NCBI GenBank assembly: GCA_963761585.1
Contig: CAVXHW010000012.1
Span: forward strand, 18,716 to 82,715
Origin: an uncultured Verrucomicrobiae bacterium
GTDB lineage: Bacteria; Verrucomicrobiota; Verrucomicrobiia; Chthoniobacterales; UBA10450
Reading direction: 5' to 3'
Length of the DNA stretch: 64,000 bases
In this document: one piece after another, positions 12,032 to 27,328 of the stretch
Layout: each line of letters starts with the position of its first letter
How positions within the stretch are numbered: the first letter of the stretch is position 1
Position numbers and translations under genes: made by a program
Notes under the pieces: generated by a model
The model's database searches: none
Told to the model about the DNA's origin: nothing
The model's input: only the letters and a program-made list of their open reading frames with translations

Positions 12032-12154
12032 GGGCTGTCTCAGTCCCTCACATTACCTGTCACGCGGACTTTCTGCGGCTTGTGTCCCGTCGCGTTATAG
12101 CTCAAAGATTCTTCAGACCGTCTTCCCTGTTCTCAAGCAGCAATCCTCGAGAAA

Positions 12155-13375
12155 CTATTTCACGATGTTGTCCGTGTCGTAATAAAAGCTCGTGCCAATT
12201 CGGTTATCGTAGGCTTGCCTAACAGAATCGAATATATTATCGGTTACACGGATGGTGGAACTACCGGTGTAGGCAACAATACAGCTGCCGGCTTGCGTTG
12301 GCTTCAACGCTCGAAATATGTTGCCAGACACTCGCGCGTCGTTCGTTGAGGTGAGGAATACGCCATTCTCATTCGTTATCCTGTTGGTTTGGCTAGTAAA
12401 AGTGTTATCTGAGATAATGGCAGCAATACAGTTGGTAAGTGCTAGATGCGTGCCATCGACGGCAACCGGGTTCGCGTGTTCAAAGTCCACGTGCGAGACT
12501 TTGATAGCGCTTAAGTTCGTCATTCTCACGCCGTCCCCAATCATATCCACATGACCGTTTAACAGTGTGAAGACCGGACTAGGTGAAGATGATTGAGAGG
12601 ATGCAAGGCTCAACGCCGGCTGACCGCCCGTCCCGCAGGAGACAACTTCAAAGCCGGACATATAGAAGCCTTCTACCCATCCCGATGTAACAATAGCTGC
12701 GTTACAGAACTTTATCTCAACATGTGTGAGCTGTATGCCGGTTGTACCTACAGTTGTGGGAGAAGTCCATTGGATACCTGTGGAGGTGACACCGATGTTC
12801 CCTGAGATATCCACCTTGTCTATCACGGCGTTGTGCGCTCTGAATAAATAGATTCCCGTGGTCCAGTATCCTCCAGTATTACCCGTTTCGGCGTTACCAC
12901 GAATTTCGACGTTTTGGATGGTTGCGGTATGGTATTTGGCATTGCCATTCCCGAACGCGGCATAGATTGCTCTCCCAGTCGCACCTGTCAGAGCTTCGAG
13001 GGTAAGCCCGTCAACATTGAGCGTATTCGCTCCCACAGTCGGAGCATAGATGCCAGCCGAAGGGCCGGTAAAGAGGATCGTGGAGACCCCAGGTCCATCG
13101 CCATAAAAGCGGTATGACTTGTTGGCGGGGACAGTTATTTGACCAGTATAGTTATAGCTGCCGGGAGGAAAATAAATGCTTGTCCCAGCAGCAACTGCGC
13201 TATTGATAGCTGCGGTATCGTCCGTTCCGTCATTCGGCGTCGCGCCATAATCAGTAATATTGATTCGATCAACAGCAGCTGCACCGAAACCGCAAGCCAA
13301 GTTGAAGAGCATAGAGAGAATTATGAGAGCTTTGTTCACGCGGCGAAGAGTATGTGTCCTCGATACGGCAGGCAA
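12155..13375 (-). CDS. right-handed beta-helix / pectate-lyase-3-like (tailspike-like) secreted protein
   Basis: 'INITDYGATPNDGTDDTAAINSAVAAGTSIYFPPGSYNY' is the classic N-terminal motif of Pectate_lyase_3 and tailspike depolymerase domains. A signal-anchor-like N-terminus is present. Confidence 0.6.
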   Translation of the reverse strand: MPAVSRTHTLRRVNKALIILSMLFNLACGFGAAAVDRINITDYGATPNDGTDDTAAINSAVAAGTSIYFPPGSYNYTGQITVPANKSYRFYGDGPGVSTILFTGPSAGIYAPTVGANTLNVDGLTLEALTGATGRAIYAAFGNGNAKYHTATIQNVEIRGNAETGNTGGYWTTGIYLFRAHNAVIDKVDISGNIGVTSTGIQWTSPTTVGTTGIQLTHVEIKFCNAAIVTSGWVEGFYMSGFEVVSCGTGGQPALSLASSQSSSPSPVFTLLNGHVDMIGDGVRMTNLSAIKVSHVDFEHANPVAVDGTHLALTNCIAAIISDNTFTSQTNRITNENGVFLTSTNDARVSGNIFRALKPTQAGSCIVAYTGSSTIRVTDNIFDSVRQAYDNRIGTSFYYDTDNIVK

Positions 13376-13439
13376 GAATTTCTGAATTCGAAGCCGTTTA
13401 TTGCGTGTCGCCGTCTCTCTAATGAAAGCGATGCAACCA

Positions 13440-13669
13440 GCGCACTCTTACGAAGTCCATCCCCGCAATGATCATCACGGCGTCAATCTGATTTCCGATG
13501 CGCTGCTATTCGGACGGCTGTGCTACGGCGATCCTCGCGCAATCACGAGCGCAATCGACTACGCGAAGTTTCGCAACCGTTAACACGATGCCGTCGTACG
13601 CGTTTACGATGAAGCTGGTAACGTGATCGAGACGCACGAGCACGCAGGCGATTTCCCAAAGAACCGTAA
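13440..13669 (+). pseudogene. degraded copy of the 80-aa protein gene (in-frame TAA plus 2-nt insertion)
   Basis: SYEVHPRNDHHGVNLISDALLFGRLCYGDP...KFRNR*HDAVVRVYDEAGNVIETHEHAGDF. The TAA is at 13581-13583. An extra 'cc' before the terminal AAAGAACCGTAA distinguishes it from the copy at 11789-12031. Confidence 0.7.
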
Positions 13670-13675
13670 CGCGTG

Positions 13676-13710
13676 AAACAAAAAGCCGCCACGTGGTGAG
13701 CGTGACGGCT
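13676..13710 (-). terminator. candidate rho-independent terminator of the tail-fibre-like gene
   Basis: On the minus strand the stem AGCCGTCACG/CGTGGCGGCT has one mismatch and is followed by TTTTGTTT. It lies 20 nt after the stop at 13731. Confidence 0.55.
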
Positions 13711-13730
13711 GATTGTGAAATGCTGCTGCT

Positions 13731-15311
13731 TTAGGGATTGTTAACCATTTGCGGCGCAGGCTTGCTCGCTTCAACCTGAGCGCTCACCTTCTGGATTTGT
13801 GATGCCTGCTCGCCCAGGCGCTCAGTAAGCTGCGCAATTGTTGCCCCGAAATCTTTCTTTAACTGCGTGATCGTGGCCTGTTGTTCTTCCACCTTGCGAT
13901 GCTCCTTGAGGAACTCATTGAGCAACATCGCGTTCACCGCTTCGTAGCGCACCGTGTACACTTTCCCCTCGGCATCGCAAGCCACTAAGTCTGGATTCAC
14001 CCTTGCGACGTCCTCTGCTACGAGGCCAAATTGCGGTCTACGGTCAGGGTCAATCTCCTTCTTATAGCGAAAGCTCACAGGTTTAAGCGCGAGAATTGCT
14101 TCGCTGGTCTTATCCATCGGTCTGATTTCGTCCTTGAACCGACGCGAGGAGGCGGCCGTACCAAGCTGTCCGGACGAATTTACCTGAACAGCGCTTCCGG
14201 CGACGGGGACTCCGGTAATGCCAACGATAAATGTCCGTGTCTGCGCCCCTGCCGTGCCAATCCGGATCCTGCCCGACTCCCCAGCGATACCAACGTTGTC
14301 GATGTCGATATTGTTGTCACCCGTCGTTAGAGCATGACCCGCATCTTGGCCCAAAGCGATGTTGTTGCTTCCGGTTGTGTTGAAAAAGAGGGCAGTGGAA
14401 CCGAGCGCTGTGTTACCCTCGCCGGTTGTGTTATGTTGGACAGCACCAACACCAACTGCTGCGTTGAACTGCCCAGTTGTGTTGCTCATGAGCGAATTAA
14501 CGCCGATTGCCGTATTGTCAATGCCGGTGGTGTTGTTCCCGAGCGCACTGAAACCTGTGGCCGTATTTTCGTTGCCGGTAGTGTTACTCCGAAGCGCTGT
14601 GGAACCGGTAGCGGTGTTATCAGCGCCGGTGGTGTTGCTAAAAAGCGCTGTGGAACCGATAGCGGTGTTATCAGCGCCGGTCGTGCTCCTCTCAAGCGCT
14701 TGGGAACCGATGGCGGTGTTAAAGTTGCCGATGGTGTTGTTAAGGAGCGCCTTAAACCCGTTGGCGGTGTTAGCTCGGCTGATAGTGCTACTAAAAAGCG
14801 CTTCAAATCCGGTGGCCGTGTTATCGAAGCCGGTGGTGTTGCTAAAAAGCGCTTCAAATCCGGTGGCCGTGTTTTGCTGGCCCGTGGTGTTGCTAAAAAG
14901 CACTGCCGTGCCAGTGGCCGTATTTGCGTTACCGATGGTGTTGTGAAAGAGCGTATTCACGCCGACCGCCGTATTTGCACTCCCAGTGCTATTGTTGGGG
15001 AGCGCGTTAACGCCATTGGCAGTGTTTTGAGCGCCGGTGGTGTTGTTAAAGAGTGCGTGGAACCCCTCGCCGGTGTTGAAATTGCCGGTAGTGTCTTGAA
15101 AGAGCGCTTGAAAACCCACAGCGGTGTTGTCGATGCCACTCGTCAGGCTCTGGAGTGCTTGATCTCCTTCGGCCGTGTTGCTCCCCGGATAACCGCCGTC
15201 AGGTGGTGGAACGACTGCTTGCGTGCTCGGCAAAAGGCCGAAGCAGAGGAGTGTTAGTGTGAGTGTAATGAGAAGTGGTGGAGTTGTTTTGAGCTGAATC
15301 AGTAGATTCAT
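13731..15311 (-). CDS. tail-fibre-like secreted repeat protein with C-terminal intramolecular chaperone (peptidase S74-like) domain
   Basis: Signal peptide, then about 18 copies of a 17-aa repeat (NTAxGxxALxxNTTGxx). The C-terminus reads 'GTAASSRRFKDEIRPMDKTSEAILALKPVSFRYKKE...FGLVAEDV...YEAVNAMLLNEFLK', typical of the endosialidase-chaperone domain. Confidence 0.7.
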   Translation of the reverse strand: MNLLIQLKTTPPLLITLTLTLLCFGLLPSTQAVVPPPDGGYPGSNTAEGDQALQSLTSGIDNTAVGFQALFQDTTGNFNTGEGFHALFNNTTGAQNTANGVNALPNNSTGSANTAVGVNTLFHNTIGNANTATGTAVLFSNTTGQQNTATGFEALFSNTTGFDNTATGFEALFSSTISRANTANGFKALLNNTIGNFNTAIGSQALERSTTGADNTAIGSTALFSNTTGADNTATGSTALRSNTTGNENTATGFSALGNNTTGIDNTAIGVNSLMSNTTGQFNAAVGVGAVQHNTTGEGNTALGSTALFFNTTGSNNIALGQDAGHALTTGDNNIDIDNVGIAGESGRIRIGTAGAQTRTFIVGITGVPVAGSAVQVNSSGQLGTAASSRRFKDEIRPMDKTSEAILALKPVSFRYKKEIDPDRRPQFGLVAEDVARVNPDLVACDAEGKVYTVRYEAVNAMLLNEFLKEHRKVEEQQATITQLKKDFGATIAQLTERLGEQASQIQKVSAQVEASKPAPQMVNNP

Positions 15312-15531
15312 GATTCTTTCCTTTCTTTTTCCGCATTAAGTTGATTCTGAATTGCCGGGTTCCCGAAAGAGGCGAAGAACCTGAGCGGGGAAAAGCCCTC
15401 CGCCTGATTCAGATACGTCTAACGCCGTCGAGTTTGGGAAAAAGCTCGTCAACCCGTCAAGACAATTCGCCGCAAGCGCAGATCGTAGATTCGCGTTCCA
15501 GGAACGCCGTCAGCTTTTCATCTTGGCAAAA

Positions 15532-16011
15532 CTAGAGGGAATCCCAAAGAGGTCGCAAATCCTCATCCTCCAGAGCCGCCATTCGCCAATCCAAATCAAT
15601 TTCAAAAGCTTTTTTAAGATAGCCTTTGGCGTTTTCCATTTCTCCAAGTTGGCAATAATAACACGCAAGATTATATGGAATTGCAGCCTCTCTTGGGAAC
15701 TTCGCCTCTGCGTTAAGGAGAATTTCCATCGCTCCGTCGATGGAATATGCTCGCCGAGTCGCATATGCCAGCGAGATTGTCCATTGGACATTATCCGGCT
15801 CAAACTGCTTCAGACGTTTGGCGATTTCCTGCATCAGCTCCCATTTTTACAATCCACGATAAATCTCGATCCTTACGGCGAGAACTTCGGGGAGCAGCAC
15901 GACAAAACGGGTCAATTTTTCTAACTCCGAATCGGCCTCTGCAAACATTCCAAGTTCGACGTATCCAATTGCAGCTTGCCGATATTGTTGGTCTGGCGGT
16001 TCAAGTGGCAT
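15532..16011 (-). pseudogene. TPR-like protein gene interrupted by an in-frame TAA (15847-15849)
   Basis: Manual translation gives MPLEPPDQQYRQAAIGYVELGMFAEADSELEKL...IEIYRGL*KWELMQEIAKRL...YNLACYYCQLGEMENAKGYLKKAFEIDLDWRMAALEDEDLRPLWDSL. A single frame is broken only by the one stop. Confidence 0.6.
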
Positions 16012-16160
16012 GATTGCGTTCCTATCGCACTAATGAGTTGAAAGCGACCCAGCCCAACCTCCATCGAGCTTTCCTAAGGTTGTTAGCGATTGATTTGCCA
16101 GTTCTTCATTCGATGCCTCGGCGGCATCACCGGGTACACCTACGGCTGACGTCGCTTGAT

Positions 16161-16814
16161 TTATCTGACCAAATTTGCAAACGGAGCGTAATCAAGTTGC
16201 CCGTATCGCGGCGGAACGATCTTATTTGAATCTAAACCGCGCCGCGCTGCCGCTTGCTTTGCACCCTCGTATGTTTTCATGTCTCGCGCGTATTGCGATG
16301 CCTTTTCTTGCGGCGACATCGCTTCTTCCCGAGCTGCCTTCTCTAACTGAAGCTCCTTCTCGGACATTTCGACTTCCAACCCGTTGACGCCACCCACGCC
16401 CACGACATGCCGCCCGGTTGCCGTCTTATGTCCCGGCTCGATTGTCGTGTTTTGTGCCTTGGCAGCTTCTTCCGTTGCTCGCCGTGACGATTCCAGTGCC
16501 ACTTGTTTTTCTTTTTCCCGCTGCTTATTAGCTTCTTCAATCTGTTGATTTGTCCGCTGAGCGGTGGTGGCTTGGGCGCCGGCGAAATCAGCAGCCTGTT
16601 GCGGATTATAGTTAAACCGCTGCTGAACCTCTTTCGGCAGTTCTTGAAAATAAATTTTAGAGATTCCCGATTTCGACTTAACCACAATCCCATCGGGGTC
16701 GACGTGAGTGACAGTGGCGTTTTTGTATTCCTTTCCGGCAACGGTTTTGAAGTCGTCAGCCAGTGCGAGTGATGTAGACAGTGCCGCCAAAATTACTAGG
16801 GGGAAGGAATTCAT
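16161..16814 (-). CDS. secreted protein with a conserved N-terminal domain and a charged, apparently coiled-coil tail (paralogue of 32593-33177)
   Basis: Signal peptide plus 'DDFKTVAGKEYKNATVTHVDPDGIVVKSKSGISKIYFQELPKEVQQRFNY'. This closely matches 'EDFKTVNGKEYKDATVTRVEPDGIVVKTNSGITKVYFTELPKEVQEHFHY' in the other copy. Confidence 0.55.
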   Translation of the reverse strand: MNSFPLVILAALSTSLALADDFKTVAGKEYKNATVTHVDPDGIVVKSKSGISKIYFQELPKEVQQRFNYNPQQAADFAGAQATTAQRTNQQIEEANKQREKEKQVALESSRRATEEAAKAQNTTIEPGHKTATGRHVVGVGGVNGLEVEMSEKELQLEKAAREEAMSPQEKASQYARDMKTYEGAKQAAARRGLDSNKIVPPRYGQLDYAPFANLVR

Positions 16815-16925
16815 GCTGCGGATTCTGCCTCTTTCTGCTCTGCCACTGCAATGACAAAGTTAGAGTCAGTCACGCTCAATCGCTCTGCGCTTCGTTTAGA
16901 GAAGCGGCTACAGTTTGTTGCGAAG

Positions 16926-16953
16926 TTGAGCTTCGCGCACGTGCTTGTAGGTT
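16926..16953 (+). promoter_or_regulatory. candidate sigma-70 promoter of tRNA-Leu(CAA)
   Basis: TTGAGC, a 16-nt spacer and TAGGTT, ending 13 nt before the tRNA 5' end. Confidence 0.4.
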
Positions 16954-16966
16954 CAGGATTCCAATT

Positions 16967-17050
16967 GCCGGCGTGGCGGAATTGGCAGACGCGCTGGACT
17001 CAAAATCCAGTGGCCGCAAGGTCGTGTGGGTTCGAGCCCCTCCGCCGGCA
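16967..17050 (+). tRNA. tRNA-Leu (anticodon CAA)
   Basis: Hand-folded. The acceptor pairs GCCGGCG with CGCCGGC. The anticodon stem pairs CTGGA with TCCAG around loop CTCAAAA. There is a long variable arm and a T loop TTCGAGC, with one T-T mismatch in the T stem. Confidence 0.85.
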
Positions 17051-17103
17051 ATGAATTCTCAATTCAATGGTCGATGTCGGACCTTCAGCGCGACGCGATC
17101 CAT

Positions 17104-20100
17104 CTATCGTTTCGTCTCATCTGGAAAAAAACGCTTCCAAACCAATTCGTAGGGATCGCCAGCTTTGCTTTCGGGATACTTTTTCCGCACATCTTCCAGT
17201 GTCATCAAAGAGCCATCTTGACTGGGATCGGACGCACTCACTGCGCTGGCAATGTCTGCCAACCATGGAGGCGCAGGTTTTGCTTCGAGTTTTTTAGATG
17301 CATCGTCTTGCGTCCGATACAGTGGACTGACGTCAACGAGGCGCACGCTGTCGAACACGTTGAACATTGCGCCTGATAAAATCAGCAATCGTTGGCCATC
17401 CAAACTGAACTGTGGAAATCCGAGTGAGCCGCGGAATACCACGGGCTCGGCCGGCTTTTCCCTGTGCGCACCCTTTGCAACGTCAACTCGACCGTACAGC
17501 GAAGTGGCGACGAGACGTGTGGCATAGTCGCCTGGTCCGACGATCAGTCGCATGAACTGGTCGCGGAAAGTCGGCGGCGGGATCGGGGTCACTTTTCCGT
17601 CGCGGAGATTAAGAGTTCGCACGCTGTTCCAACTCGTTAGGGTAATTTCGTCATTGCCGGGACCGAAAGCGATGCCGTTTGGCAGGAAACCTTCGGACAA
17701 TCGAATCGAATCTTTTCCGTCTATGGGGAATACCTGGAGATAGTCGTCGCTGAATGAAAATAAAGCTACCTTGCGCAGTGCTGGCGCGTCGGGATCCACA
17801 GATACTGCGGCCATGCCGCTATGGTACGTGGCGAAAGCAAGCGCCACGATTTTCATGTCCGTGAGTCGCTTGGATCTATCGACGAGTTCCCGGAACGTTC
17901 CCTCGACCTGGAAAAAGGCGCATTCCGCCTCGTTCGTGCCGCGCGCATTAACAATGACAAGCCGATCTGACTCGTTAGACCACGCAAAATTGATGCGGGA
18001 GCCTCGAAGCCGCTGAATTTCCAAGTCCTCGCCCGTGGCGTCGTACGTTCGATTCTGCATCGACCATCGCCAGACCTGAATTTTGCATAGCTCGTGGCCA
18101 GCACCGGCGGGTGCGGGCGGTGCTCCCTGTGCAGGCGCGCCTTGCACGGCGCTCTCTCCATCGGCACCCGAAGCAAGCGTTGGTGGAATGATCAACAACC
18201 AGCGTCCGTCGGGGCTGAAGGATGCAAAACCGGGTTGCACGATCTGCTGAGGGTTAGCCGGTTGCGGCTTCTCAAATAACGATTTGGCGGTGGGCGACAT
18301 CGAGCGTCCTCCATTCCAGAACAAGAGCTGACCATCACCGCCCACAACGAAGATTTCGTTGTTGCTTCCTCCCGGAAGGAAGGTTGCTGCGAGTAATGCA
18401 TCTTTCTGATAAAGCACAGCCGGCGCGGCCGGGGGACACCAAACATGTTGAAGCAATAGATTGCTAGCCAGCATTGCTGCTTCGGTATCCAGAGGATTAC
18501 AATTCAGAGCAAGCGCGAGGTTCCGAAGCGCAGTGATATCCTTTATCGGATTATCCGTTCCGTCATGTAAAACTAACTTTGCGTTTTCTCTGAGACTTTG
18601 GCCCCTCTCGACCAGTGCCTGATGCTGTGTCTCCAGCTCCTCGGCCTTTTGCTTCGAAAGCCGCGACGCCCGTAGCGACACTAACCAGAGCGCTGCGAAG
18701 GCAATCAACATGATTATCCCAAGAAAGAAGACCGTGATGCCGAAGACTCGTTCCCGCTTGCGCTTCTCCAGCAGGAGGTTTACGCGTTCGCTCTCGGCTT
18801 TGCGTAGTTTCTCCTGTTCTTCAGCGCGCTGACGTGCTTCCTCCAACTCCTCGGCCTGGCGTCTTTTTGTCTCCTCGATTTGCTTTCTGCTGCGCGTAAC
18901 AAGCAGCCGCGCCTCCGGAGTTGCGCCGAGAATCTTCGCTTCTGGCGAATTCAAATACGCCTCTGCTTCACGAAGCTCCACTTCATCCAGAAGGTCATCC
19001 GATCCGCGTTTAACGTATTCTTCCAACTCCGCGCGAATTCGCTCCGCATCCTGGTATCCGGCAAGCCACTTATGATTGGACTTCTGTATTGGTTCGATAA
19101 AGCGATCGTGAGTTAACTCGTGAGTTATTGTGCCTGAGCGATCCTCCCGACGAATAACGTGAGCTTCCTCCAGCTCTTTTAGTGCGAGCCCCGGGATTCT
19201 CCAGGTCGCTCCAGGCGCGCCGCGAAAAGCAAGTCCGCGTGTTCCGGTAGGAGTTATCAGAGCCGTTCCAAACCAACGCCGCAATTCACCTTCGCCGATT
19301 CTGCCTTCAGTAGCGGCAGCAGCTCTCTCCACTGAGCGATCGTAGTAGCGCGCTAAAGCATTATCCACGTCGCCGAAGCGTTCGATATATTCGGCCGTGA
19401 TCAGACGCGATCCGTCGCTGCTGACGTTCGGTCCACCTTTCCATTCCAACGGCAGGTTTTCCCAGAGCGATTGGCACACGACTTGAAGCTGAACCGGTTC
19501 CACGAATTCGCCGCAGGTTTCACGGAACTTGTCGCCTTCCGCTACCCGAATCTCCGAAAGCTCCCCCATCAATTCGTCGGCTGCGTTCGGGTCGAAGGAA
19601 AGGCCCCAATTCTCGAAAGGTTTGACCACCGCGGAGCGGGCCGCATTTCCGCGGAGTCGCTCCAAGTGCATGCGTGGCCGTAATTTCTCCGGAAGCAAAT
19701 CGGCGAACGGCTCCAGTTGCGCGATGTACTCCTCACGCATGACGAAAACAACCTTCATCGTTGGCAAGTCGTTCAGGGCCTGCGCCAGCTGATCGAAAAA
19801 CGGGCGCCGTTCCTGCCAGCGATACTGATTGGTCGTGAAGAATTCTTCGAATTGATCCAGGATTACGATTAACGGAGGCGGGCTATCCTCGTCTGCTGCT
19901 GGAGCAGCAACGAGAGGTTTGAGAAATTCAGACAACGTTGTCTTCGCATGATCTTTGATGAATTGGCCGTTCGGCAATGTTGTCGCCCAGTATTGAAGCG
20001 CGTGGTAAACAAAAATGTTTTGCACGCTCTCGGGCGGAACATCATTTGGCAGCAAACCATGGACGCGTGCGGATCGCAGAACCTGGTACTGCTGATCCTC

Positions 20101-20286
20101 CAGGCGCGGGATGACACCTGCCCGCAATAACGAGCTTTTGCCTGCTCCCGATTGCGCATAAACAAGGACAGCCCGGTGCGCGATGATCAATGAAAGAAGC
20201 TCCTCCGTCTCGCGCGTGCGACCGAAAAACCGATCGCTGTCCTCCTTTTCAAAAGGCCGCGGTCCGACGAAGGGCGAATCGCTCAT
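17104..20286 (-). CDS. STAND-type P-loop NTPase with central hydrophobic helix and C-terminal beta-propeller-like domain (~1060 aa)
   Basis: 'FVGPRPFEKEDSDRFFGRTRETEELL', Walker A 'AQSGAGKSSL' and Walker B-like 'LIVILDQFEEFF'. A charged, probably coiled-coil segment follows, then the TM-like 'VFGITVFFLGIIMLIAFAALWLVSL', then a C-terminal region with 'FSPDGRWLLI' and 'FSLDGQRLLIL' blade-like motifs. The start is taken at the ATG in an ATGA overlap with the upstream stop. Confidence 0.75.
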   Translation of the reverse strand: MSDSPFVGPRPFEKEDSDRFFGRTRETEELLSLIIAHRAVLVYAQSGAGKSSLLRAGVIPRLEDQQYQVLRSARVHGLLPNDVPPESVQNIFVYHALQYWATTLPNGQFIKDHAKTTLSEFLKPLVAAPAADEDSPPPLIVILDQFEEFFTTNQYRWQERRPFFDQLAQALNDLPTMKVVFVMREEYIAQLEPFADLLPEKLRPRMHLERLRGNAARSAVVKPFENWGLSFDPNAADELMGELSEIRVAEGDKFRETCGEFVEPVQLQVVCQSLWENLPLEWKGGPNVSSDGSRLITAEYIERFGDVDNALARYYDRSVERAAAATEGRIGEGELRRWFGTALITPTGTRGLAFRGAPGATWRIPGLALKELEEAHVIRREDRSGTITHELTHDRFIEPIQKSNHKWLAGYQDAERIRAELEEYVKRGSDDLLDEVELREAEAYLNSPEAKILGATPEARLLVTRSRKQIEETKRRQAEELEEARQRAEEQEKLRKAESERVNLLLEKRKRERVFGITVFFLGIIMLIAFAALWLVSLRASRLSKQKAEELETQHQALVERGQSLRENAKLVLHDGTDNPIKDITALRNLALALNCNPLDTEAAMLASNLLLQHVWCPPAAPAVLYQKDALLAATFLPGGSNNEIFVVGGDGQLLFWNGGRSMSPTAKSLFEKPQPANPQQIVQPGFASFSPDGRWLLIIPPTLASGADGESAVQGAPAQGAPPAPAGAGHELCKIQVWRWSMQNRTYDATGEDLEIQRLRGSRINFAWSNESDRLVIVNARGTNEAECAFFQVEGTFRELVDRSKRLTDMKIVALAFATYHSGMAAVSVDPDAPALRKVALFSFSDDYLQVFPIDGKDSIRLSEGFLPNGIAFGPGNDEITLTSWNSVRTLNLRDGKVTPIPPPTFRDQFMRLIVGPGDYATRLVATSLYGRVDVAKGAHREKPAEPVVFRGSLGFPQFSLDGQRLLILSGAMFNVFDSVRLVDVSPLYRTQDDASKKLEAKPAPPWLADIASAVSASDPSQDGSLMTLEDVRKKYPESKAGDPYELVWKRFFPDETKR

Positions 20287-21264
20287 CCCCGGCTGAAAGC
20301 TTCCCACCGCACTCGCAGCTCCTCGCAAAACTGCTGACACGTGCCCCAATAAATTTTTACCTGCGCGCTGCCGAAATACGAATCGAGGTACTTCACGGCC
20401 TTGGCCGCTTTCTCTGCCTGCTCGCCTGGCGCGTCAGAAGGCTCTAGTTGCACCGCGATGTGCGTGTTACCACTGTCGCGCAGCTTGTTTGCGAAGAGTC
20501 GGAAGAGCACCAGAAAATCCCAGTCCGACAGGGTGTAGCCCAAAAAGAGCAGCGCGCCTCCCAGCGCTCGATCGACTCGATGCGCGAGTGATTTGTAGTC
20601 CCGCGAAATGTTGATTAGGAATTCAAAATAATCGTCCTCGGTCACTACCGCCGATTCCGCCCACGGCGTGCAACCGTGAAAATGATAGACAAGTGGATTC
20701 GCTACTGAATAGGCGAAGTCCCCGATCAAAACTTGGCGCTTTCTCAGGGATATGCCGGTTCCAACGACAGATCGCAAGACGCGCATCTCGTTTCTTGTAT
20801 TCGGTCAGCGCGCGAAACATCCAATCGTCGAAGTTACTCGTGAGATAAACTGGAAAAGGAAGATCGGCCAAAACCCGGTGCGGCTCGTTAGGCCAAGCCG
20901 AAAAGTTCGGTGACGGCAGACTACCGAAATGTTCGGCGAACGCCTCTTTCGGAGCCATGATGTCATCGGTCGCTGCCACGTATTTCGCCACTCGTTCCAG
21001 CTTGGTTTGATCGTCGAGCGGATAGGCGTAATCAGCCGCGAACTGGAGCGCGATCTGTTCCTTTGACGGATAATTCAATTTTGCCCATTCTGCCGGATCA
21101 GCACCCACGGGAGGGGCTGTGCACGCACCCGAGCCAAGCACGGGCGTGCACTTGTCGTCTCTGATGCGTTTCAATAGCCGCTCCCAAGTCTTGTCGTCCA
21201 ACTCACGGCCGCTCTTCGACGGCAGAACGTCCTTTGATTCGGCGGCAACGGGGTCAGCGCTCAT
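20283..21264 (-). CDS. SIR2-like (SIR2_2-type) protein B, apparent 1-nt frameshift at a G4 run (~20720-20723)
   Basis: Two overlapping ORFs (20623-21291 and 20283-20786) together align along the whole of SIR2-like protein A: 'KCTPVLGSGAC', 'YLTSNFDDWM', 'NPLVYHFHG', 'VVTEDDY', 'FLGYTLSDWDF'. Removing one G from GGGG restores PSFDRDFAYSVANPLVYHFHG. Confidence 0.7.
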
Positions 21265-22154
21265 TTTTTCGTTTGCTCGAAGGTGGTCCAACGCTCGTCC
21301 AACTGCGATGAAAATTCTCGGGCTGTCCCCCAGAAAACCTTCATGTCCATGGCGCCGTAAAATTTTTCGAAATATGCCCGATGCGCAGCGCGATTTGGAT
21401 CGGTTTCATCTGGAGGTTTTAGCACGACTATGCTGCTGAATTGTTGCCGCGCGCGTAAAGTCTGAAAGAGAACGCGGAAATTCCAGTCGCCCAAACGATA
21501 GCCGATGAACAAAAAACTCGTGGCGGCAAACGCCTGTTGCACAACCTCGGGCAGAAGATCCGGTTTGGCGGCCATGTTCGCGAGGAACGTTAAATAATCG
21601 TCTTCGGTCAAGACGAGCGACTCGGAAACGTCGAGCGCGCCATGCAAATGGAACACGAGCGGATTGGCGGGCGTTGGTTTGTAGCCAGGCTCTTTTTCGA
21701 AAATCGATTCCACGTGCTGCAGAATGTCCTGCCAACGGCAGATCTCACGGCGCGCATCTTTCAATTTCCATTTGAGAGCGCGAACCATGAAGTCGTCGTA
21801 ATTCGTCGTGATCACAATTGGCAGCGGAAGACCCGCGAGAACGCTGTGCGGTTCACCGGAGTTCCCAAACTGTGGCGGCTGGGTGTACTTTGGCGGACCG
21901 GCTGCGCGCAGAATGTCTACGACGTCTTCTTTTGGTGCGTTCGGGTCGGATTGTACGGCCGCATACTGCGCAACGCGCACGAGATCTCGGTCCGGGAACG
22001 GATAGGCGTAGCGCTGTGCGAGCTCTTCCGCCACATCGGCTCCAAGAGGGAGCGCGCCATAACAGGCGCCCGCTCCCAAAAAAGGAGTGCACTTCCCCGA
22101 CTGAATCCTACGCAGGAGCCGATTCCAGTCCGCTTCTTGAAGTTCACTCGTCAC
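21261..22154 (-). CDS. SIR2-like (SIR2_2-type) protein A
   Basis: 'WNRLLRRIQSGKCTPFLGAGAC', 'VITTNYDDFM', 'NPLVFHLHG', 'VLTEDDY', 'FIGYRLGDWNF'. This is the conserved Gly loop, Asn and His pattern of SIR2-family NAD-utilising domains. Confidence 0.7.
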   Translation of the reverse strand: MTSELQEADWNRLLRRIQSGKCTPFLGAGACYGALPLGADVAEELAQRYAYPFPDRDLVRVAQYAAVQSDPNAPKEDVVDILRAAGPPKYTQPPQFGNSGEPHSVLAGLPLPIVITTNYDDFMVRALKWKLKDARREICRWQDILQHVESIFEKEPGYKPTPANPLVFHLHGALDVSESLVLTEDDYLTFLANMAAKPDLLPEVVQQAFAATSFLFIGYRLGDWNFRVLFQTLRARQQFSSIVVLKPPDETDPNRAAHRAYFEKFYGAMDMKVFWGTAREFSSQLDERWTTFEQTKK

Positions 22155-22337
22155 ATCAAACAGACTAACGAACGGGTATGATGGTTAAGGATTTCTGCGT
22201 ATGATGTCAACACCGCTATTTACAGATCAAATTCCATAGCGGATCGATTGAGCAGCTCTCGTTAGGCAATGAGCCCGCACAGCAGCTGAAAACCTGGCGA
22301 TTCCATTCACGCTGTCCACCTGACGCCTGTTCGGATC

Positions 22338-23165
22338 GTGCCGATAACACTTTATGCTTGTGTGCGTGAGCGAGAACCACAATGTTCATTTGTGAACGGG
22401 AAGAACGGCCACGAGAGCGCAGGCGTAGCGCGTGAGTTTGTAACTACCCGCTGGAGTCTGATCCTTTCGGCGGCCAACTTGGGGAGTGACGAGCAAAAAG
22501 TTCACAATGCGCTCGCCGAACTTTGCCGCGTTTATTGGCGGCCCATTTTCTTGTTTATACGGGCACGCGGCTATTCGATTGAGGACGCACAGGATCTCAC
22601 GCAGGATTTTCTTGTGACCATTCTGAAGAAGAACTGGCTGCAGCACGCAGATCGTAATCGCGGGCGGTTCCGCTCGCTCTTGCTCAAGTCGCTCCAAAAT
22701 TTTCTTGTTAATGCCGCGGAGAAAGCTCATGCCCACAAACGGGGCGGCGGTGTGGAATTTATTTCCTGGGACGATTGGATGGCGGAAGCGCCGTCAGACT
22801 TGTCCCTGCCCGCTGCGACATTGGAGTCGTTACCGCCCGAGCGGCTCTTCGACTTCACATGGGCAGCCACCGTAGTTGAACGCGCGCTTCAAAGGCTGCG
22901 TGAAGAATGTGAAAGCAAAGGCAAACTCTGGCTTTTCCAGACGCTAAGTTCCCATCTTACAGACGAGCGCGATGAAGTTTCATATGCGAGACTCTCCGCG
23001 GAACTGGGAATCGCTGAGACCACCGTGAAAAAACAGCTGCACAACATGCGTCAGCGTTACCGCAGCCTGCTGCGCGAAGAAGTCTCGCAAACGGTCGAAG
23101 ACCCTGCCGACGTGGACGACGAGATCCGTTACCTGTGTGCGTTACTCGCAACAGGAACCGAGTAA
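22338..23165 (+). CDS. ECF-type sigma-70 family factor (Ser/Thr-kinase-associated type)
   Basis: 'TTRWSLIL', 'YWRPIFLFIRARGYSIEDAQDLTQDF' (region 2-like) and C-terminal 'SYARLSAELGIAETTVKKQLHNMRQRY' (region 4 HTH). A kinase gene follows immediately. The start (GTG) is uncertain. Confidence 0.65.
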   Translation: MPITLYACVREREPQCSFVNGKNGHESAGVAREFVTTRWSLILSAANLGSDEQKVHNALAELCRVYWRPIFLFIRARGYSIEDAQDLTQDFLVTILKKNWLQHADRNRGRFRSLLLKSLQNFLVNAAEKAHAHKRGGGVEFISWDDWMAEAPSDLSLPAATLESLPPERLFDFTWAATVVERALQRLREECESKGKLWLFQTLSSHLTDERDEVSYARLSAELGIAETTVKKQLHNMRQRYRSLLREEVSQTVEDPADVDDEIRYLCALLATGTE

Positions 23166-23170
23166 TTACA

Positions 23171-25718
23171 ATGACAGATTCAGATCCCCCCTCCGATCAG
23201 CTTCAGAGCGCTACCGAAGAGCACGCAAAATGCGAGAAGTGTGGGGCAATTATGCGACTCGACACCGGGGTTTGCGTGAGCTGCCTCTTGCGCAAGGGAT
23301 TGGAAGGCGGTGACGAAATATCTCAGGCGTCTTTTCAAACCGTCCTCGCCGAAGTGGACGCGCCAAACAAGTCTTGGTTCCTGGGAAATTACGAAATCCT
23401 CGAACAGATTGGTTGTGGCGGGATGGGCGTGATCTATCGCGCCAGGCAACGACATTCCCGGCGCATCGTGGCGGTGAAGCGCGTCCTTAGTTATCGCGCC
23501 GATTCACATGGAGCACTGCAACGTTTCCGACGAGAAGCCCAGGCGGTGGCCAGTCTGGATCATCCAAACATCCTTCCGATTTATGAAGTGAGCGAAAGCG
23601 AGGACGGCCTGCCGTTTTTCAGCATGAAGTTCGCGGAGAAGGGAAGCTTGCAAGAGAACGCGGCTTCTCTCCGCGATCAACCGCGGAAGTGCGTGCAACT
23701 CATGGCAAAAGTCGCGCACGCCGTTGAATACGCCCACAGCCGTGGAGTTCTCCATCGCGACCTAAAACCGGGAAACATTCTGCTCAACGATCGAGGCGAG
23801 CCACTGGTCAGCGATTTCGGTTTGGCGAAGCTGCTGGACGGCAACAACGATCTTACAAGGTCGCTGACCACCTTCGGAACCGCAGGTTTTATCGCGCCCG
23901 AACAGGCCGGTGATGCAGCCGTCGATCTTGCCCCAGTTGCCGATGTCTACAGTCTCGGCGCAGTTCTGTTCAACGTGCTTACCGGACGTCCACCATTCCT
24001 GGGTTCGAATCCGGTTTCCGTGATTCGCCAAGCGTCCGAAACGCAGGCGCCCAAACTACGCTCGTTGGCTACCATCGCTTGATCGCGATTTGGAGACGAT
24101 TTGCGCGCGCTGTCTCGAACGCGATCCAAAAGCGCGCTACCAGTCCGCCGGCGACCTCGCAGCCGATCTTGAACGTTGGCTCGGCGGCCGTCCAATCGTC
24201 GCGCGCCCGGTTTCACCGCCAGCGCGGATCTGGCGCTGGTCGCAGCGTAACCCCAAACTGGTCGGAGCAGCGACTGCCGGTCTGCTTTTAGGCGCGGCTG
24301 CGGTTTGGTCATTTCGCGCTGATCTTTTCCGAGCGTCGCAGTTTAATCCCCCAGACAGGAGTATTGCGGTTCTACCGTTTACAGATTCTAGCGCGACGAA
24401 AGATCAGGAATATTTGGGTGACGGCATCAGCGAGGAGATTCTCCATACGTTGGCGCAAGTTGACGGTTTGCGCGTGGCCGGCCGAGCTTCGTCATTCTCA
24501 TTGAAAGGAAAGAACACGAAGGAGGTGGGAGAAAAACTCAACGTTGGAAATGTGCTTGAAGGGAGTTTGAAGCGCCACGGTAACCGTATTCGTGTGACAG
24601 CCGAACTGATTGACGCGCGAAACGGTTTTCGCGTTTGGACGGAAACGTATGACCGCGAGCTGGACGGCGCGTTTGCACTCCAGGACCAAATCGCCGGGTC
24701 TATCGCCGATGCACTCAAGATCAAGTTCGCCGTTCAGCTTTCCGCGCACGAACAACCCGGCAATGGCGTATACGACCGTTATCTACAGGGACTTTTCACG
24801 GATGTAATCCATCCGACAGGAGTTAGCCGTATCGACGCTAGCGTGTCCGTACAGAATCCATCTGATCCATTCACCGTTCCGGATTACACATCTGCGGAAG
24901 ATTTCGACTCGCGCCGCCCGGACGCTCAGGTGACCAGTGTGCCTCCAGCGACGGGATTCACTGCTAGTGTGCGTGATGGCGCACTGGAAGGTCCTCGAAC
25001 GAATAAAATTACAGCGAACGCAATCGCTGCACCTCCAGAGGTGGCATTCAACCCCAGTGAGCGTGATCGCGCATTACAAACCAGTTTCCGAACGAACAAA
25101 ATCACAGCGGACGTGACCGCTGCGCCTCCAAAGACGCCACTCAACACCAGTGTGCGTGATCGCGCATTGCAGGCCGGTTTTCGAACGAACAAAATTACAG
25201 CGGACGTGGCCAGTACGCCTCCAGAGACGGCATTCAACACCAGTGTGCGTGATCGTTCATCGCAAGCCGATCTCCGAACGAACAAAATTACAACGGACGG
25301 GCCAGCGTCCCTTCAAGGGTTTGTCAAAGATGCAAAAGGCGAACCGATTAAAGGCGCAGACGTTCGGGTCGAATCCCGAGATGGCAAACAGGTGTTCAGC
25401 ACAGTAAAGACCGATACACAGGGTCGCTATATTTCACAGGGACTGCAACCGGGTGTCTATCGGGTGACATTGCTTGCGAGTGGGAAGGTCAAGGCGTCGA
25501 TCATGAACACGCGGACCAAAGCGAATCAATCGACTCAGCTGAATTTCGATTTCAAGCCAACATCCCAAGCAGGTAATAGTGCAAAGAGTGGAAAGCATAT
25601 TGTATGGATGCCAGGTCGCACCGGGACCCATCTCGGCGGTAATTGGGTCGAAGTCGACGACAAGGGAAATGAGAATTCCGGTTCCAAGACTCAGACATAC
25701 ACCGCTCAAAGGTGGTAA
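23171..25718 (+). CDS. Ser/Thr protein kinase with TM, extracytoplasmic domains and C-terminal CarboxypepD_reg-like module; apparent 1-nt frameshift near 24068-24072
   Basis: Zn-ribbon-like 'CEKCGAIMRLDTGVCVSC', then 'GCGGMGVIYRA', 'VAVKRV', 'HRDLKPGNILL' and 'DFGLAKL'. The second ORF continues subdomain XI in another frame (LPSLDRDLETICARCLERDPKARYQSAGDLAADLERWL). A TM helix, four in-frame repeats and 'GFVKDAKGEPIKGADVRVESRDGKQVFSTVKTDTQGRY' follow. Confidence 0.8.
24942..25297 (+). repeat. in-frame tandem repeat, ~3.9 copies of 90-93 bp (30-31 aa), inside the kinase gene
   Basis: Units start at 24942, 25032, 25125 and 25218 (CCTCCA...). The peptide unit is PPxTxFNTSVRDRALQxxFRTNKITADVxxx. 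Confidence 0.85.
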
Positions 25719-25963
25719 TCTGAAAACGGCTGCAAAGAAGCGACGACCAACATCAAGGGTCGTACTTGGAACGTCGCGCCAAGAAAACGCTTCTAATCTG
25801 TAGCCATCGCTCTGTGGGTCGTGTGCCCACGCCTTACGGAAGCCCGACGGTAGCGACAGTCTACTCGCGGAAACTTCGCTTTTTCCCTCATTCTATAAAT
25901 CATTTTGGAACTTCGCCTCTGCTCTCCTGTAGGAACTAGTGAATCATCACATCTTATTCGCTT

Positions 25964-26527
25964 ATGTTTATTAAATCATTGCAGATCGGGTTAATCGGGT
26001 TCCTCCTTTGTGCTGTGAACGCTTGGGCGGGACCAGCAAGCATTCAGGGAATCGTCAGAGACGCTCACGGAAAGCCAATTAAAGGCGCAGATGTTCGCGT
26101 TGAGTCGCGAGATGGCAAGCAACTCTTCAATACGGTAAAAACCGATACACAGGGTCGCTACATTTCACAGGTACAACCCGGCGTTTATCGGGTTTCGCTG
26201 GTAGTCAATGGTGCAGTGAAAGCCGCTATCGGCAATACGAAAACCAAGGCGGATCAACCGACACAACTGAACTTTGATCTGAAACCCGTGGCGGCAGGCC
26301 AAGCAAGCACCGAGCAAAAGAAAGGGAAGCATATGGTGTGGGTCCCCGCGAGCACCGGGAGTCACATAGGCGGTAGCTGGGTCGCGGTTGATGGGAGTGG
26401 TAACGCGGGTGCCGGCGCTTTGAACGTCAAGAGGGGCAGCGCCGAAGCGGTGCGACAGCAACAACTTAGTAACACCTCGTTTGGACTGCCGCCGACGTCG
26501 TCGGGGGCGACGTCAATAGGGCCTTGA
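25964..26527 (+). CDS. secreted CarboxypepD_reg-like module protein, paralogue 1
   Basis: Signal peptide MFIKSLQIGLIGFLLCAVNAWA, then 'IQGIVRDAHGKPIKGADVRVESRDGKQLFNTVKTDTQGRYISQ'. Homologous to the kinase C-terminus and to 26662-27195. Confidence 0.7.
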   Translation: MFIKSLQIGLIGFLLCAVNAWAGPASIQGIVRDAHGKPIKGADVRVESRDGKQLFNTVKTDTQGRYISQVQPGVYRVSLVVNGAVKAAIGNTKTKADQPTQLNFDLKPVAAGQASTEQKKGKHMVWVPASTGSHIGGSWVAVDGSGNAGAGALNVKRGSAEAVRQQQLSNTSFGLPPTSSGATSIGP

Positions 26528-26661
26528 GCGATTTCGCAGCCAGACGGTAGCAACAGTCCGCTCGCGGAAACTTCGCTTTTTCCCTCATTCCACAAATGAT
26601 TTTGGAACTTCGCGTCTTTTTTCCTGTAGGAATTAGTGAATCATCATGTCTTATATTATCT

Positions 26662-27195
26662 ATGTTTATTAAATCATTGCAGATCGGGTTAATGGGGTTC
26701 CTCCTTTGTGCTGCGAGCGCTTGGGCCGGACCAGCAAGCATTCAGGGGATCGTTAAGGACGCCCAGGGAAAGCCGATTAAAGGCGCGGATATTCGGGTTG
26801 CGTCGCAAAATGGCAAGCAGCTCTTCAATACGGTAAAGACCGATACACAGGGTCGCTACATTTCACAGGGTTTACAGCCCGGCACTTATCGGGTTTCGCT
26901 CGTAGTCAATGGTGCAGTGAAGGCTGCCATTGGCAATACGAAAACCAGGTCAGATCAGGCAACGCAACTGAACTTTGATCTGAAACCCGTGGCGGCAGGG
27001 CAAGCAAGCGTCGAGCAGAAGAAAGGAAAGCACATGGTCTGGATGCCGCCGGCTACAGGCAGTCATACGGGTGGTCGCTGGGTCGAAGTTTCCGACGGGG
27101 CCACAGAGGCCGGTACTTTGAACGTGAAAAGAGCTAGCGGGGAACAATTGCAGCGTGAAATGCACAGCATGGGCAACCCTAACACGGGTAATTAA
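26662..27195 (+). CDS. secreted CarboxypepD_reg-like module protein, paralogue 2
   Basis: Start taken at MFIKSLQIGLMGFLLCAASAWA by homology with paralogue 1, followed by 'IQGIVKDAQGKPIKGADIRVASQNGKQLFNTVKTDTQGRYISQGLQPGTYRV'. Confidence 0.7.
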   Translation: MFIKSLQIGLMGFLLCAASAWAGPASIQGIVKDAQGKPIKGADIRVASQNGKQLFNTVKTDTQGRYISQGLQPGTYRVSLVVNGAVKAAIGNTKTRSDQATQLNFDLKPVAAGQASVEQKKGKHMVWMPPATGSHTGGRWVEVSDGATEAGTLNVKRASGEQLQREMHSMGNPNTGN

Positions 27196-27328
27196 CTTCG
27201 CCGACGCACGTCAGTAGTAACGCAACACAGACTCAACCTGTCGTTCGCGCTGCCTCATATAACGAGTTTTCAAAATCAAGCGTCGGCTCCTGTTACGCTG
27301 TAGCCTTCTGCGGGTTGGCGGTTAGATG

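Follow-up and report, generated by a model that had tools for sequence, protein, structure and literature searches.

A SIR2–nSTAND1 gene unit of Candidatus Udaeobacter with a predicted membrane-spanning NTPase, a putative NLR-like conflict module

The nSTAND1-centred counter-invader systems described by Kaur, Iyer, Burroughs and Aravind in 2021 are computational predictions (PMC8195603), and their source data list the architecture "nSTAND1+TM+BetaPropeller" 278 times (eLife, PMC8195603). Some effectors on this chassis are fused N-terminally (CASPASE+, Trypsin+, Pkinase+ and EAD10+nSTAND1+TM+BetaPropeller), and others come from a separate gene upstream, as in the NAD-targeting "TIR+DrHyd-> nSTAND1+TM+BetaPropeller" (PMC8195603). 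The locus studied here shares the NTPase family (PF20703) and the chassis with these systems. However, its effector is SIR2_2, present singly or as paired old paralogues, and no EAD or Death-like adaptor domain explaining recruitment was detected by profile search. SIR2 is not in the main-text effector list given with these NTPases, and the seven mentions of SIR2 in the PMC8195603 source file are all unrelated to nSTAND1 operons. An earlier note on this DNA had not recognised the architecture as a catalogued one and had proposed a search with PADLOC. None of the PADLOC system models matched the locus; the chassis itself was already in the 2021 catalogue, and what is new relative to it is SIR2 as the effector, in one copy or two.

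Avs5 (AVAST type 5) likewise combines a SIR2 NADase effector with a STAND NTPase whose sensor is C-terminal, and the fold neighbours of SIR2-A, the first protein of the locus, include it. In Avs5, oligomerisation or filament formation activates SIR2 (PMC11897194). Avs5 is one cytosolic polypeptide, whereas SIR2 here is a separate protein, often two; moreover, the NTPase here belongs to the nSTAND1 clade, matches no PADLOC Avs model, is predicted to span the membrane and has a WD40 propeller as its sensor. Among solved sequences and structures, SIR2-A is closest to ThsA of Thoeris, DSR2 and KomC of Kongming, with which it shares the conserved Asn/His NADase site, but these proteins have no STAND NTPase as a partner. 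ThsA has a SLOG domain and requires the TIR protein ThsB; DSR2, at ~1000 aa, includes a sensor of its own; and KomC acts together with KomA and KomB. The partners ThsB, KomA and KomB are all absent here.

Two further comparisons concern the partnership of the proteins. FAM118A and FAM118B are vertebrate SIR2_2 paralogues, each weak alone, which process NAD on interaction (PMC12700824). The two SIR2_2 proteins here may be partners in a similar way, being stand-alone paralogues too, but FAM118A and FAM118B have no NTPase partner and the comparison is an analogy only. In the Apaf-1-type apoptosome, a ligand makes an NTPase with WD40 propeller sensors oligomerise, and the NTPase then recruits an effector encoded by another gene. 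The locus resembles this assembly (treated in PMC7159879) in its STAND NTPase with a WD40 sensor and its separately encoded effector; however, Apaf-1 belongs to a different STAND clade (AP-ATPase), is cytosolic and recruits caspases through CARD adaptors.

The gene unit and SIR2-A

The window, which is the whole 64,000-nucleotide stretch of DNA analysed, comes from a soil bacterium, Candidatus Udaeobacter. Three ORFs lie on its minus strand: SIR2-A (21261-22154; 297 aa, GTG start), SIR2-B (20283-21264) and the nSTAND1 NTPase (17104-20286; 1060 aa, counted from the ATG at 20286). An ATGA overlap joins the SIR2-A stop to the SIR2-B start at 21261-21264, and another joins the SIR2-B stop to the NTPase start at 20283-20286. 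Both were read from the sequence exactly where the earlier note had placed them, and both zero-gap junctions are kept in most close Udaeobacter loci. Every motif that the note had quoted for the three genes was found in the translations. The profile searches, hydropathy scan and fold comparisons reported below supported its identification of two SIR2 paralogues and of a STAND NTPase that has a membrane segment and ends in a beta-propeller.

The trio is one conserved unit, as had been proposed. One or two SIR2 genes are followed by the nSTAND1 NTPase gene on the same strand in 79/79 of the species genome loci with sufficient DNA downstream; two SIR2 copies are present in 47 of these and one in 32, so that a two-gene form with a single SIR2 also belongs to the family. 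This order was found in Verrucomicrobiota, Planctomycetota, Acidobacteriota, Chloroflexota, Rhodothermales, anammox bacteria and Geomonas, and also on three metagenome contigs (L001, L002 and L004).

SIR2-A is a stand-alone SIR2_2 protein (PF13289, 4.9e-26) with the motifs FLGAGAC (Gly loop, 22062-22082), TTNYDD, which contains the catalytic Asn118 (within 21792-21809), and FHLHG, which contains the catalytic His171 (within 21639-21653). Asn118, His171 and the GAG loop were invariant in the SIR2 homologues encoded by 49 first genes and 31 single genes, with all three features retained in 80/80 sequences. In a sequence search against solved chains, the closest were KomC-type (1e-9) and ThsA (4e-8), and human SIRT2 gave only non-significant E-values. 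The AF2 model, which is of low confidence around the His loop (pLDDT 67.6), had ThsA, KomC, DSR2 and Avs5 as its fold neighbours in Foldseek, with a probability of 1.0 for ThsA, DSR2 and KomC; canonical sirtuins were not among them. By sequence and fold, SIR2-A groups with antiphage NADases and not with deacetylase sirtuins. Homology thus predicts NADase activity for SIR2-A, although a SIR2_2 protein could instead act by ADP-ribosylation or deacylation of a target.

Genomic setting and proposed function

We propose, with a probability of about 0.55, that the three genes form an NLR-like conflict module of the nSTAND1 class, in which the NTPase is a single-pass membrane protein and SIR2-A depletes NAD+. 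The propeller would bind a foreign or danger-associated ligand at the cell envelope, for which a phage component at adsorption or ejection and an attack by a competitor are candidates. The signal would pass across the membrane and lead to NTP-dependent oligomerisation of the NTPase modules, and the oligomer would assemble and activate the cytosolic SIR2 proteins. SIR2-A would be the enzyme cleaving NAD+; SIR2-B, whose catalysis appears dispensable in most lineages, would probably join SIR2-A in a heteromer, as its scaffold or regulator. The predicted NAD+ depletion would end in arrest or death of the cell.

Sensor identity is 46-65% where that of the NTPase module is 86-94%, and the sensor dN is 4-7x that of the SIR2 genes and the NTPase module. 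The fast divergence of the sensor and the swapping of sensors and effectors on the same NTPase chassis together form a pattern typical of conflict systems. The sensor dN/dS of 0.195 is elevated, yet below 1, compared with 0.043 for SIR2-A and 0.065 for the NTPase module.

An unlikely alternative is that the locus has no immune or conflict role but encodes a housekeeping signalling receptor. Its membrane NTPase would read an envelope or environmental cue, and the SIR2 proteins would tune NAD+, acylation or ADP-ribosylation in dormancy or stress. Such a role would fit purifying selection on all parts and a genomic position that is kept across species: the trio is syntenic with the ECF-sigma/kinase side in at least 10 Udaeobacter species. 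It would also fit the metabolic and housekeeping neighbours in other phyla. In other lineages, 11 loci had mostly housekeeping genes within 5 kb, and no mobile-element genes and no recurrent defence, mobility or other gene family were found in that range. Furthermore, the family was not found in 50,697 phage genomes or in IMG/VR, and in the plasmid collection it matched only two very large replicons. The housekeeping neighbours, the Udaeobacter synteny, the absence from phage genomes and IMG/VR, the restriction to two very large replicons in the plasmid collection and the sensor dN/dS below 1 were all counted against the conflict-module reading. On the other hand, a housekeeping receptor is difficult to reconcile with the grouping of SIR2-A with antiphage NADases, with a sensor that diverges several times faster while sensor and effector types are exchanged on the NTPase chassis, and with the very patchy distribution of the family (443 matches among 185,579 species genomes).

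The earlier note had placed the trio in a defence island, and this argument fails: the trio has housekeeping genes beside it, and synteny at the locus is kept across at least 10 Udaeobacter species. The convergent tRNA-Leu(CAA) gene (16966-17051, plus strand; ARAGORN), 53 nt from the NTPase stop, is context outside the system. Udaeobacter relatives retain this tRNA gene beside the trio, and the DNA beyond it varies, such that the variable islet is located across the tRNA from the trio. The neighbour once described as phage-tail-like (13731-15311) is a repeat-containing protein that carries a Peptidase_S74 chaperone domain. The trio is not flanked by tRNA-derived repeats.

Topology of the NTPase and its sensor

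The N-terminal part of the NTPase is an nSTAND1 P-loop module (aa 5-326; 19309-20274, minus strand, as are all NTPase features below), which matched PF20703 at 2.1e-40 with 140 bits against a cut-off of 27.1. It contains the motif FFGRTRE (aa 20-26), Walker A AQSGAGKSS (aa 44-52; 20131-20157) and Walker B LIVILDQFEE (aa 139-148; 19843-19872). A charged helical linker leads toward the membrane (aa 430-513; 18748-18999); its composition is 50% D/E/K/R, and it may form a coiled coil. The hydropathy scan predicted a single TM helix, VFGITVFFLGIIMLIAFAALWLVSL, at aa 514-538 (18673-18747), which separates the NTPase module from the C-terminal sensor. In the AF2 model (pLDDT 76.5, pTM 0.76), the region after the membrane (17107-18666) contains a WD40-type beta-propeller at aa 624-985 (17332-18417), and the best Foldseek matches were seven-bladed WD40 propellers (probability 1.0, TM 0.64-0.69). 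A canonical Pfam WD40 lies at the same position in 25 of 44 family members.

The membrane segment is a feature of the family. A hydrophobic segment follows the NTPase module in 60 of 61 family NTPases, with exactly one in 59; these stretches are 22-30 residues long, lie at the same place and have a mean hydropathy of 2.0-3.4 over 19 residues. K+R counts within 15 aa of the helix averaged 5.0 on its N-terminal side and 3.3 on its C-terminal side; 44 proteins have more of these residues on the N side, and 6 have more on the C side. When one span follows a cytosolic module that binds ATP, the C-terminus lies outside, and bacterial Ser/Thr kinases with external sensor domains have the same topology. 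Hydropathy and charge bias only, as the basis of the topology, suggest that the NTPase module and the charged linker are cytosolic and that the propeller, the proposed extracytoplasmic sensor, faces the periplasm or the exterior.

The same evidence makes it quite unlikely that the protein is a classical cytosolic Avs-like sensor, in which the segment would be an inner-face tether or no helix at all and the propeller would bind an intracellular phage protein. A single hydrophobic stretch at one place in nearly all of the 61 proteins, a charge bias that is positive on the N side and the external C-terminus expected after a single span all argue against such an arrangement. Nevertheless, most proteins known to have canonical WD40 repeats are cytosolic, and one or two of the 61 members lack a clear helix of this kind, among them a Scalindua member with TPR as its sensor in place of the propeller. 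The characterised bacterial STAND defence proteins, moreover, sense phage proteins in the cytosol (PMC12803255).

SIR2-B and the frame break

SIR2-B (~326 aa) is an older SIR2_2 paralogue, with 38% identity to SIR2-A, the motifs VLGSGAC, TSNFDD and YHFHG, and a PF13289 match in its C-terminal half (6.2e-15). All second-gene SIR2 sequences cluster separately from SIR2-A and the single-copy SIR2 sequences; on this clustering, the duplication is an old split that is not peculiar to the window genome. The single-SIR2 version is nearly as common. The Asn is gone in 13 of 50 SIR2-B sequences and the His in 14 of 50, through at least six different substitutions, and the dN/dS is nonetheless 0.066. 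Because the catalytic residues were lost repeatedly in other lineages, SIR2-B is probably a non-catalytic partner acting as an adaptor, scaffold or regulator. The expectation that both SIR2 proteins consume NAD is thus doubtful for the family as a whole: SIR2-A has intact sites, SIR2-B often does not, and the frame of the window copy of SIR2-B is broken as well.

This frame break, reported near 20720, is real in the window sequence, where SIR2-B is read in two frames (20623-21264 and 20283-20786, minus strand). Alignment with five close relatives identified a one-base insertion at 20718-20727, where the window has GATCGGGGAC and the relatives have GATGGGGAC or GATCCGGAC; SIR2-B is intact (~326 aa) in all five (L005, L006, L007, L009 and L011). 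The insertion is private to the window sequence, relatives with 97-99% identity being intact; the neighbouring kinase gene, 3 kb away, carries a second private frameshift, and other long-contig (MFD) MAGs have frameshifts at different sites of the same locus. These observations therefore suggest indel errors in assembly and, with no further damage seen in the three genes, make it highly improbable that the insertion splitting SIR2-B marks a decaying pseudogene with no current function. The single-base break looks like an assembly error, and the window copy may be intact in the living organism.

Organization and recurrence of the SIR2-nSTAND1 trio

The candidate defense trio occupies positions 17104-22154 of the window and consists of three tandem open reading frames, all on the minus strand. 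SIR2-A (21261-22154, 297 aa in the ORF scan) is followed by SIR2-B (20283-21264), which is split between two frames in the window, and by an nSTAND1 NTPase of 1060 aa that runs from an ATG at 20286 to a stop at 17104. At both junctions, the sequence ATGA (21264-21261 and 20286-20283) overlaps each stop codon with the following start codon. In the Pfam search, SIR2-A matched SIR2_2 (PF13289) with an E value of 4.9e-26 (91.9 bits; cut-off, 24.5), the C-terminal half of SIR2-B matched the same profile at 6.2e-15 (56 bits), and the third protein matched nSTAND1 (PF20703) at 2.1e-40 (140 bits; cut-off, 27.1) while falling below the cut-offs of both the NACHT and AAA_16 profiles. The NTPase carries a Walker A motif (GAGKS) at aa 47-51 and a Walker B motif (ILDQFEE) ending at aa 148, and both SIR2 genes of the window carry the Gly-rich NAD loop, the catalytic Asn, and the catalytic His. 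The motifs quoted in an earlier note, which was made from the sequence alone, were all found at computed coordinates, and the profile searches confirmed its placement of the first two genes in the SIR2 superfamily and of the third among the STAND NTPases. The structural description of the trio is considered nearly certain. The promoter scan showed no sigma-70-like promoter at 16800-22500, and the terminator-like matches in the same interval were close to the shuffled expectation.

The frame break in SIR2-B was examined by alignment. Positions 20718-20727 read GATCGGGGAC in the window and are one base shorter in five close relatives, in which SIR2-B is uninterrupted. The Ser/Thr kinase gene adjoining the trio (23135-25718, plus strand) is also divided into two frames (23135-24082 and 24090-25718), and these parts share one frame in eight Udaeobacter relatives. 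Two such private frameshifts within 3.5 kb suggest that the assembly contains indel errors. Because the kinase frameshift is private and MFD long-contig MAGs of the same genus carry frameshifts elsewhere in the trio locus, the break in SIR2-B is probably an assembly error rather than decay.

Relatives of SIR2-A were sought in one genome per species across 185,579 species, which yielded 443 loci. Top relatives, with 91-99% identity, belonged to Candidatus Udaeobacter and related Chthoniobacterales MAGs, which places the window in that genus. Among the best 80 of the 443 loci, which were retrieved, an nSTAND1 NTPase gene came next on the same strand in all 79 that had sufficient downstream DNA, and the gap between the SIR2 and NTPase genes was mostly 0-90 nt. 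Two SIR2 genes preceded the NTPase in 47 of the 79 loci and one in 32, a count that takes in at least one contig-truncated trio. An identical gene order was found on three metagenome contigs, and the lineages represented include Verrucomicrobiota, Planctomycetota, Acidobacteriota, Chloroflexota, Rhodothermales, anammox Planctomycetes, and Geomonas. This strict linkage bears out the view of the trio as a conserved unit. No further recurrent gene family adjoined the SIR2/NTPase unit in the related loci; therefore, the system consists of two or three genes. The trio appears to be fixed across much of Candidatus Udaeobacter.

Conservation of the two SIR2 proteins

When 130 SIR2 sequences from SIR2+nSTAND1 loci were aligned, the catalytic residues proved to be conserved asymmetrically between the two SIR2 genes. 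The Gly-Ala-Gly loop, Asn118, and His171 were invariant in 49 first-gene and 31 single-gene proteins. Among 50 second-gene proteins, the Asn was lost in 13, and the His and the third loop glycine in 14 each. The His was replaced by Leu, Tyr, or Phe and the Asn by Asp, Ala, Gly, Thr, or His; because the replacements vary by lineage, the losses were independent. In a neighbor-joining tree, all second-gene proteins fell outside the clade of first-gene and single-gene proteins, which fits a single old duplication, with long-branch effects possible. A recent duplication was ruled out by the 38% identity between SIR2-A and SIR2-B, together with the separate grouping of the second-gene copies. The SIR2-B proteins of Udaeobacter keep the loop, the Asn, and the His. 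The proposal that both proteins plausibly consume NAD agrees with the motifs kept by both window genes but is doubtful for the family, in which second-gene orthologues often lose the Asn or His. In our reading, SIR2-A is the predicted enzyme, and SIR2-B may have a catalysis-free role as a scaffold, adaptor, or regulator.

The solved structures nearest to SIR2-A in sequence were the KomC-type SIR2, ThsA, and DSR2. In the fold search, which identified PDB entry 9V0G as the Kongming KomBC complex, the nearest folds to the SIR2-A model, a modest one (pLDDT 67.6) that is good for family placement alone, were ThsA, KomC, DSR2, and Avs5, and human SIRT2 appeared at nonsignificant E values only. The vertebrate SIR2_2 paralogues FAM118A and FAM118B, which are weak singly and active jointly, may by analogy provide a functional precedent for the pairing of SIR2-A with SIR2-B (PMC12700824). 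A fully conserved SIR2 protein with a repeatedly "dead" paralogue parallels this vertebrate pair and offers a simple model for the off/on control of SIR2 NADases.

Predicted membrane helix, propeller fold, and proposed switch

The hydropathy of 61 family NTPases was scanned at a threshold of 1.6. A hydrophobic segment past the NTPase module was found in 60 of the 61 proteins, with a marginal case in one locus (L050), and 59 had exactly one such segment. In the window protein, it lies at aa 514-538; the hydrophobic helix that the earlier note had seen there is accordingly a family-wide feature. The 15 flanking residues contained on average 5.0 Lys and Arg on the N side versus 3.3 on the C side, and 44 proteins had more of these residues on the N side, whereas 6 had more on the C side. 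Because the P-loop module must be cytoplasmic and there is a single span, the C-terminal region of the NTPase is predicted to lie outside the cytoplasm. A member from Candidatus Scalindua (locus L080, 10903-13653) has a single SIR2 gene and an nSTAND1 NTPase with TPR and without a propeller or hydrophobic segment, and this pair resembles a form of the SIR2+nSTAND1 system with a cytosolic sensor.

Pfam showed no domain in the 520 residues past the membrane segment of the window NTPase, and canonical WD40 repeats were detected in this region in 25 of 44 diverse family members. AlphaFold2 modeled the window region with a pLDDT of 76.5 and a pTM of 0.76 as three helices, an all-beta domain, and a short helical tail. 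The Foldseek neighbors of the model were seven-bladed WD40 propellers, including RACK1, bacterial PkwA, and DCAF1 (probability, 1.0; target TM score, 0.64-0.69). These results establish the propeller fold, which had been suggested from the sequence. Median dN/dS values were calculated from 13 closely related trio loci, mostly of Udaeobacter species. They were 0.043 for SIR2-A, 0.066 for SIR2-B, which is thus under purifying selection, 0.065 for the NTPase module, 0.156 for the charged linker, and 0.195 for the post-membrane region. Identity to the window protein fell to 46-65% in the sensor and was 86-94% in the NTPase module. A receptor domain that tracks a changing ligand would be expected to diverge in this way; the sensor dN/dS is below 1, so positive selection is not proven.

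Of the models considered, an outside-in, NLR-like switch has the best support. A ligand would bind the external propeller, the cytosolic NTPase modules would oligomerize in an NTP-dependent manner, and the oligomer would assemble SIR2-A with SIR2-B; the resulting cleavage of NAD+ would lead to growth arrest or death. We assign a probability of roughly 0.55 to an NAD+-depletion switch, and a specifically antiphage role is rated lower. The full proposal, a membrane-spanning NLR-like receptor for extracytoplasmic danger (phage at the envelope or microbial attack) whose enzyme-pseudoenzyme SIR2 pair collapses NAD+, is put forward tentatively and is somewhat doubtful as a whole. Characterized bacterial STAND or NLR-like defenses, such as Avs and bNACHT, sense phage proteins in the cytosol, and no discussion of an external sensor in bacterial STAND defense was found in the open-access and bioRxiv literature. 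If true, the proposal would describe an "outside-in" form of STAND immunity that is common in soil phyla whose defenses have received little study (Verrucomicrobiota, Acidobacteriota, Planctomycetota, and Chloroflexota). A far-side sensor would mean that bacterial NLR-like switches can report envelope events and would provide a tractable case of transmembrane signaling by a STAND NTPase. Candidatus Udaeobacter is among the most abundant soil bacteria; because the trio seems fixed in much of this group, its trigger likely matters ecologically. Two features make the trio worth experimental study: the predicted external sensor and the pairing of a putative SIR2 enzyme with a pseudoenzyme.

Relation to known systems and genomic setting

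The three trio proteins showed only weak SIR2-domain matches, to ThsA, Dsr, LmuA, and PDC-S25, in PADLOC and NCBIfam, and the NTPase showed no match to either. The trio is therefore absent from these system libraries, as the earlier note had supposed. The closest arrangement came from a catalogue of predicted counter-invader systems, in which Kaur, Iyer, Burroughs, and Aravind defined nSTAND1 as a STAND clade in 2021 (PMC8195603). The source data of its Figure 2 list "nSTAND1+TM+BetaPropeller" 278 times, with N-terminal caspase, trypsin, protein kinase, or EAD10 fusions in many entries and with separate upstream effector genes in others (for instance, "TIR+DrHyd-> nSTAND1+TM+BetaPropeller" and "TIR+TIR-> nSTAND1+BetaPropeller"). 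Thus, the chassis with an NAD-targeting effector in trans is already catalogued, and the window NTPase likewise has a TM helix followed by a beta-propeller according to hydropathy, AlphaFold2/Foldseek, and Pfam. The catalogued chassis goes with an effector (caspase, trypsin, kinase, TIR, or DrHyd) or with an EAD adaptor, whereas the effector here is SIR2_2; Pfam detected no EAD or Death-like domain in the trio. The source data contain no operon of SIR2 with nSTAND1, since their seven mentions of SIR2 are TPR-GreAB-C-PIN proteins and one distant neighbor, and SIR2 is absent from the main-text list of effectors beside these NTPases (PMC8195603). The chassis is modular in both effector and sensor. 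The architecture, which had been described as unrecognized, is less novel than supposed, although its chassis is known as a prediction only and its SIR2 effector is unlisted in that catalogue. In the open-access and bioRxiv literature, no named or tested system of a SIR2 protein or SIR2 pair with nSTAND1 was found; searches for a multigene system of SIR2 with STAND yielded only the fused Avs5 and general nSTAND1 papers. A 2026 survey of defense-associated STANDs mentions WD40 sensors and not the SIR2+nSTAND1 arrangement (PMC12803255).

Other SIR2 systems were less similar. Avs5 (AVAST type 5) has SIR2, STAND, and sensor in one polypeptide, whereas these are separate genes here, and the PADLOC Avs models did not match the window NTPase at E ≤ 0.1. 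Thoeris combines ThsA (SIR2 plus SLOG) with the TIR protein ThsB; SIR2-A matched the ThsA models weakly and in the SIR2 region only (3e-14), with no SLOG in SIR2-A and no TIR gene among the window neighbors. Unlike the trio, DSR1 and DSR2 are single proteins of >1000 aa with SIR2 and their own sensor, and the Dsr2 equivalog model gave 17.6 bits (cut-off, 1400). SIR2-HerA was dismissed, with no HerA among the window neighbors or in the related loci.

The trio had also been placed in a defense island, and this setting was not upheld. Its upstream neighbors (an ECF sigma factor, the Ser/Thr kinase, and CarboxypepD_reg proteins) and the downstream tRNA-Leu(CAA) are kept in at least 10 Udaeobacter species. 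No tRNA-derived direct repeat or att-like boundary was found around the trio, where the long repeats reflect SIR2-A/SIR2-B paralogy only; an island integrated at tRNA-Leu was rejected on this ground. The base composition is flat. In 11 loci of other lineages, the ORFs within 5 kb (98 of 192 scanned) were mainly metabolic or housekeeping, with only a few generic PADLOC matches and no family occurring more than twice in raw counts. SIR2-A had no match in the phage collection, and in IMG/VR its family was absent, with distant SIR2 relatives only (21-29% identity). In the plasmid collection, two very large replicons matched SIR2-A; a SIR2+NTPase pair is present on the one that was inspected. The Udaeobacter synteny, the housekeeping neighbors, the lack of a tRNA repeat, and the near-absence from mobile collections weaken the defense reading, yet it is kept because of the patchy distribution and because known defense genes are poorly charted in the trio-bearing phyla.

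Variable DNA was found separately from the trio, in an islet of about 6.5 kb 5' of tRNA-Leu(CAA) (about 10450-16900) that is absent or replaced in several Udaeobacter species with both flanks. It contains hypothetical genes and encodes a pectate-lyase-like protein (12155-13375), a small protein with TPR, and a repeat protein of 526 aa (13731-15311) that carries a Peptidase_S74 chaperone domain. Beyond it, a second tRNA-Leu (GAG; 8444-8525) adjoins a flotillin-like FloA gene (8606-9622) in a region conserved in relatives. On the other side of the trio, positions 24900-27200 contain several internal repeats and paralogous CarboxypepD_reg genes (the C terminus of 24090-25718, 25964-26527, and 26596-27195), which cross-match at 70-85% identity both inside single Udaeobacter loci and from one such locus to another. 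In a Pyrinomonadaceae MAG (L084), a second nSTAND1 protein (5143-8526) ends about 1.5 kb upstream of a SIR2+nSTAND1 pair. This second protein begins with an adenylate/guanylate cyclase domain and also contains HEAT repeats and several predicted membrane helices; the MAG therefore carries two neighboring nSTAND1 systems that differ in their effectors. On a metagenome contig (L002), a protein of 667 aa (14443-16446) that combines HTH_GRAD with GreA/GreB domains adjoins the trio and may be a member of the TPR-GreAB-C-PIN conflict systems of Kaur et al. (2021).
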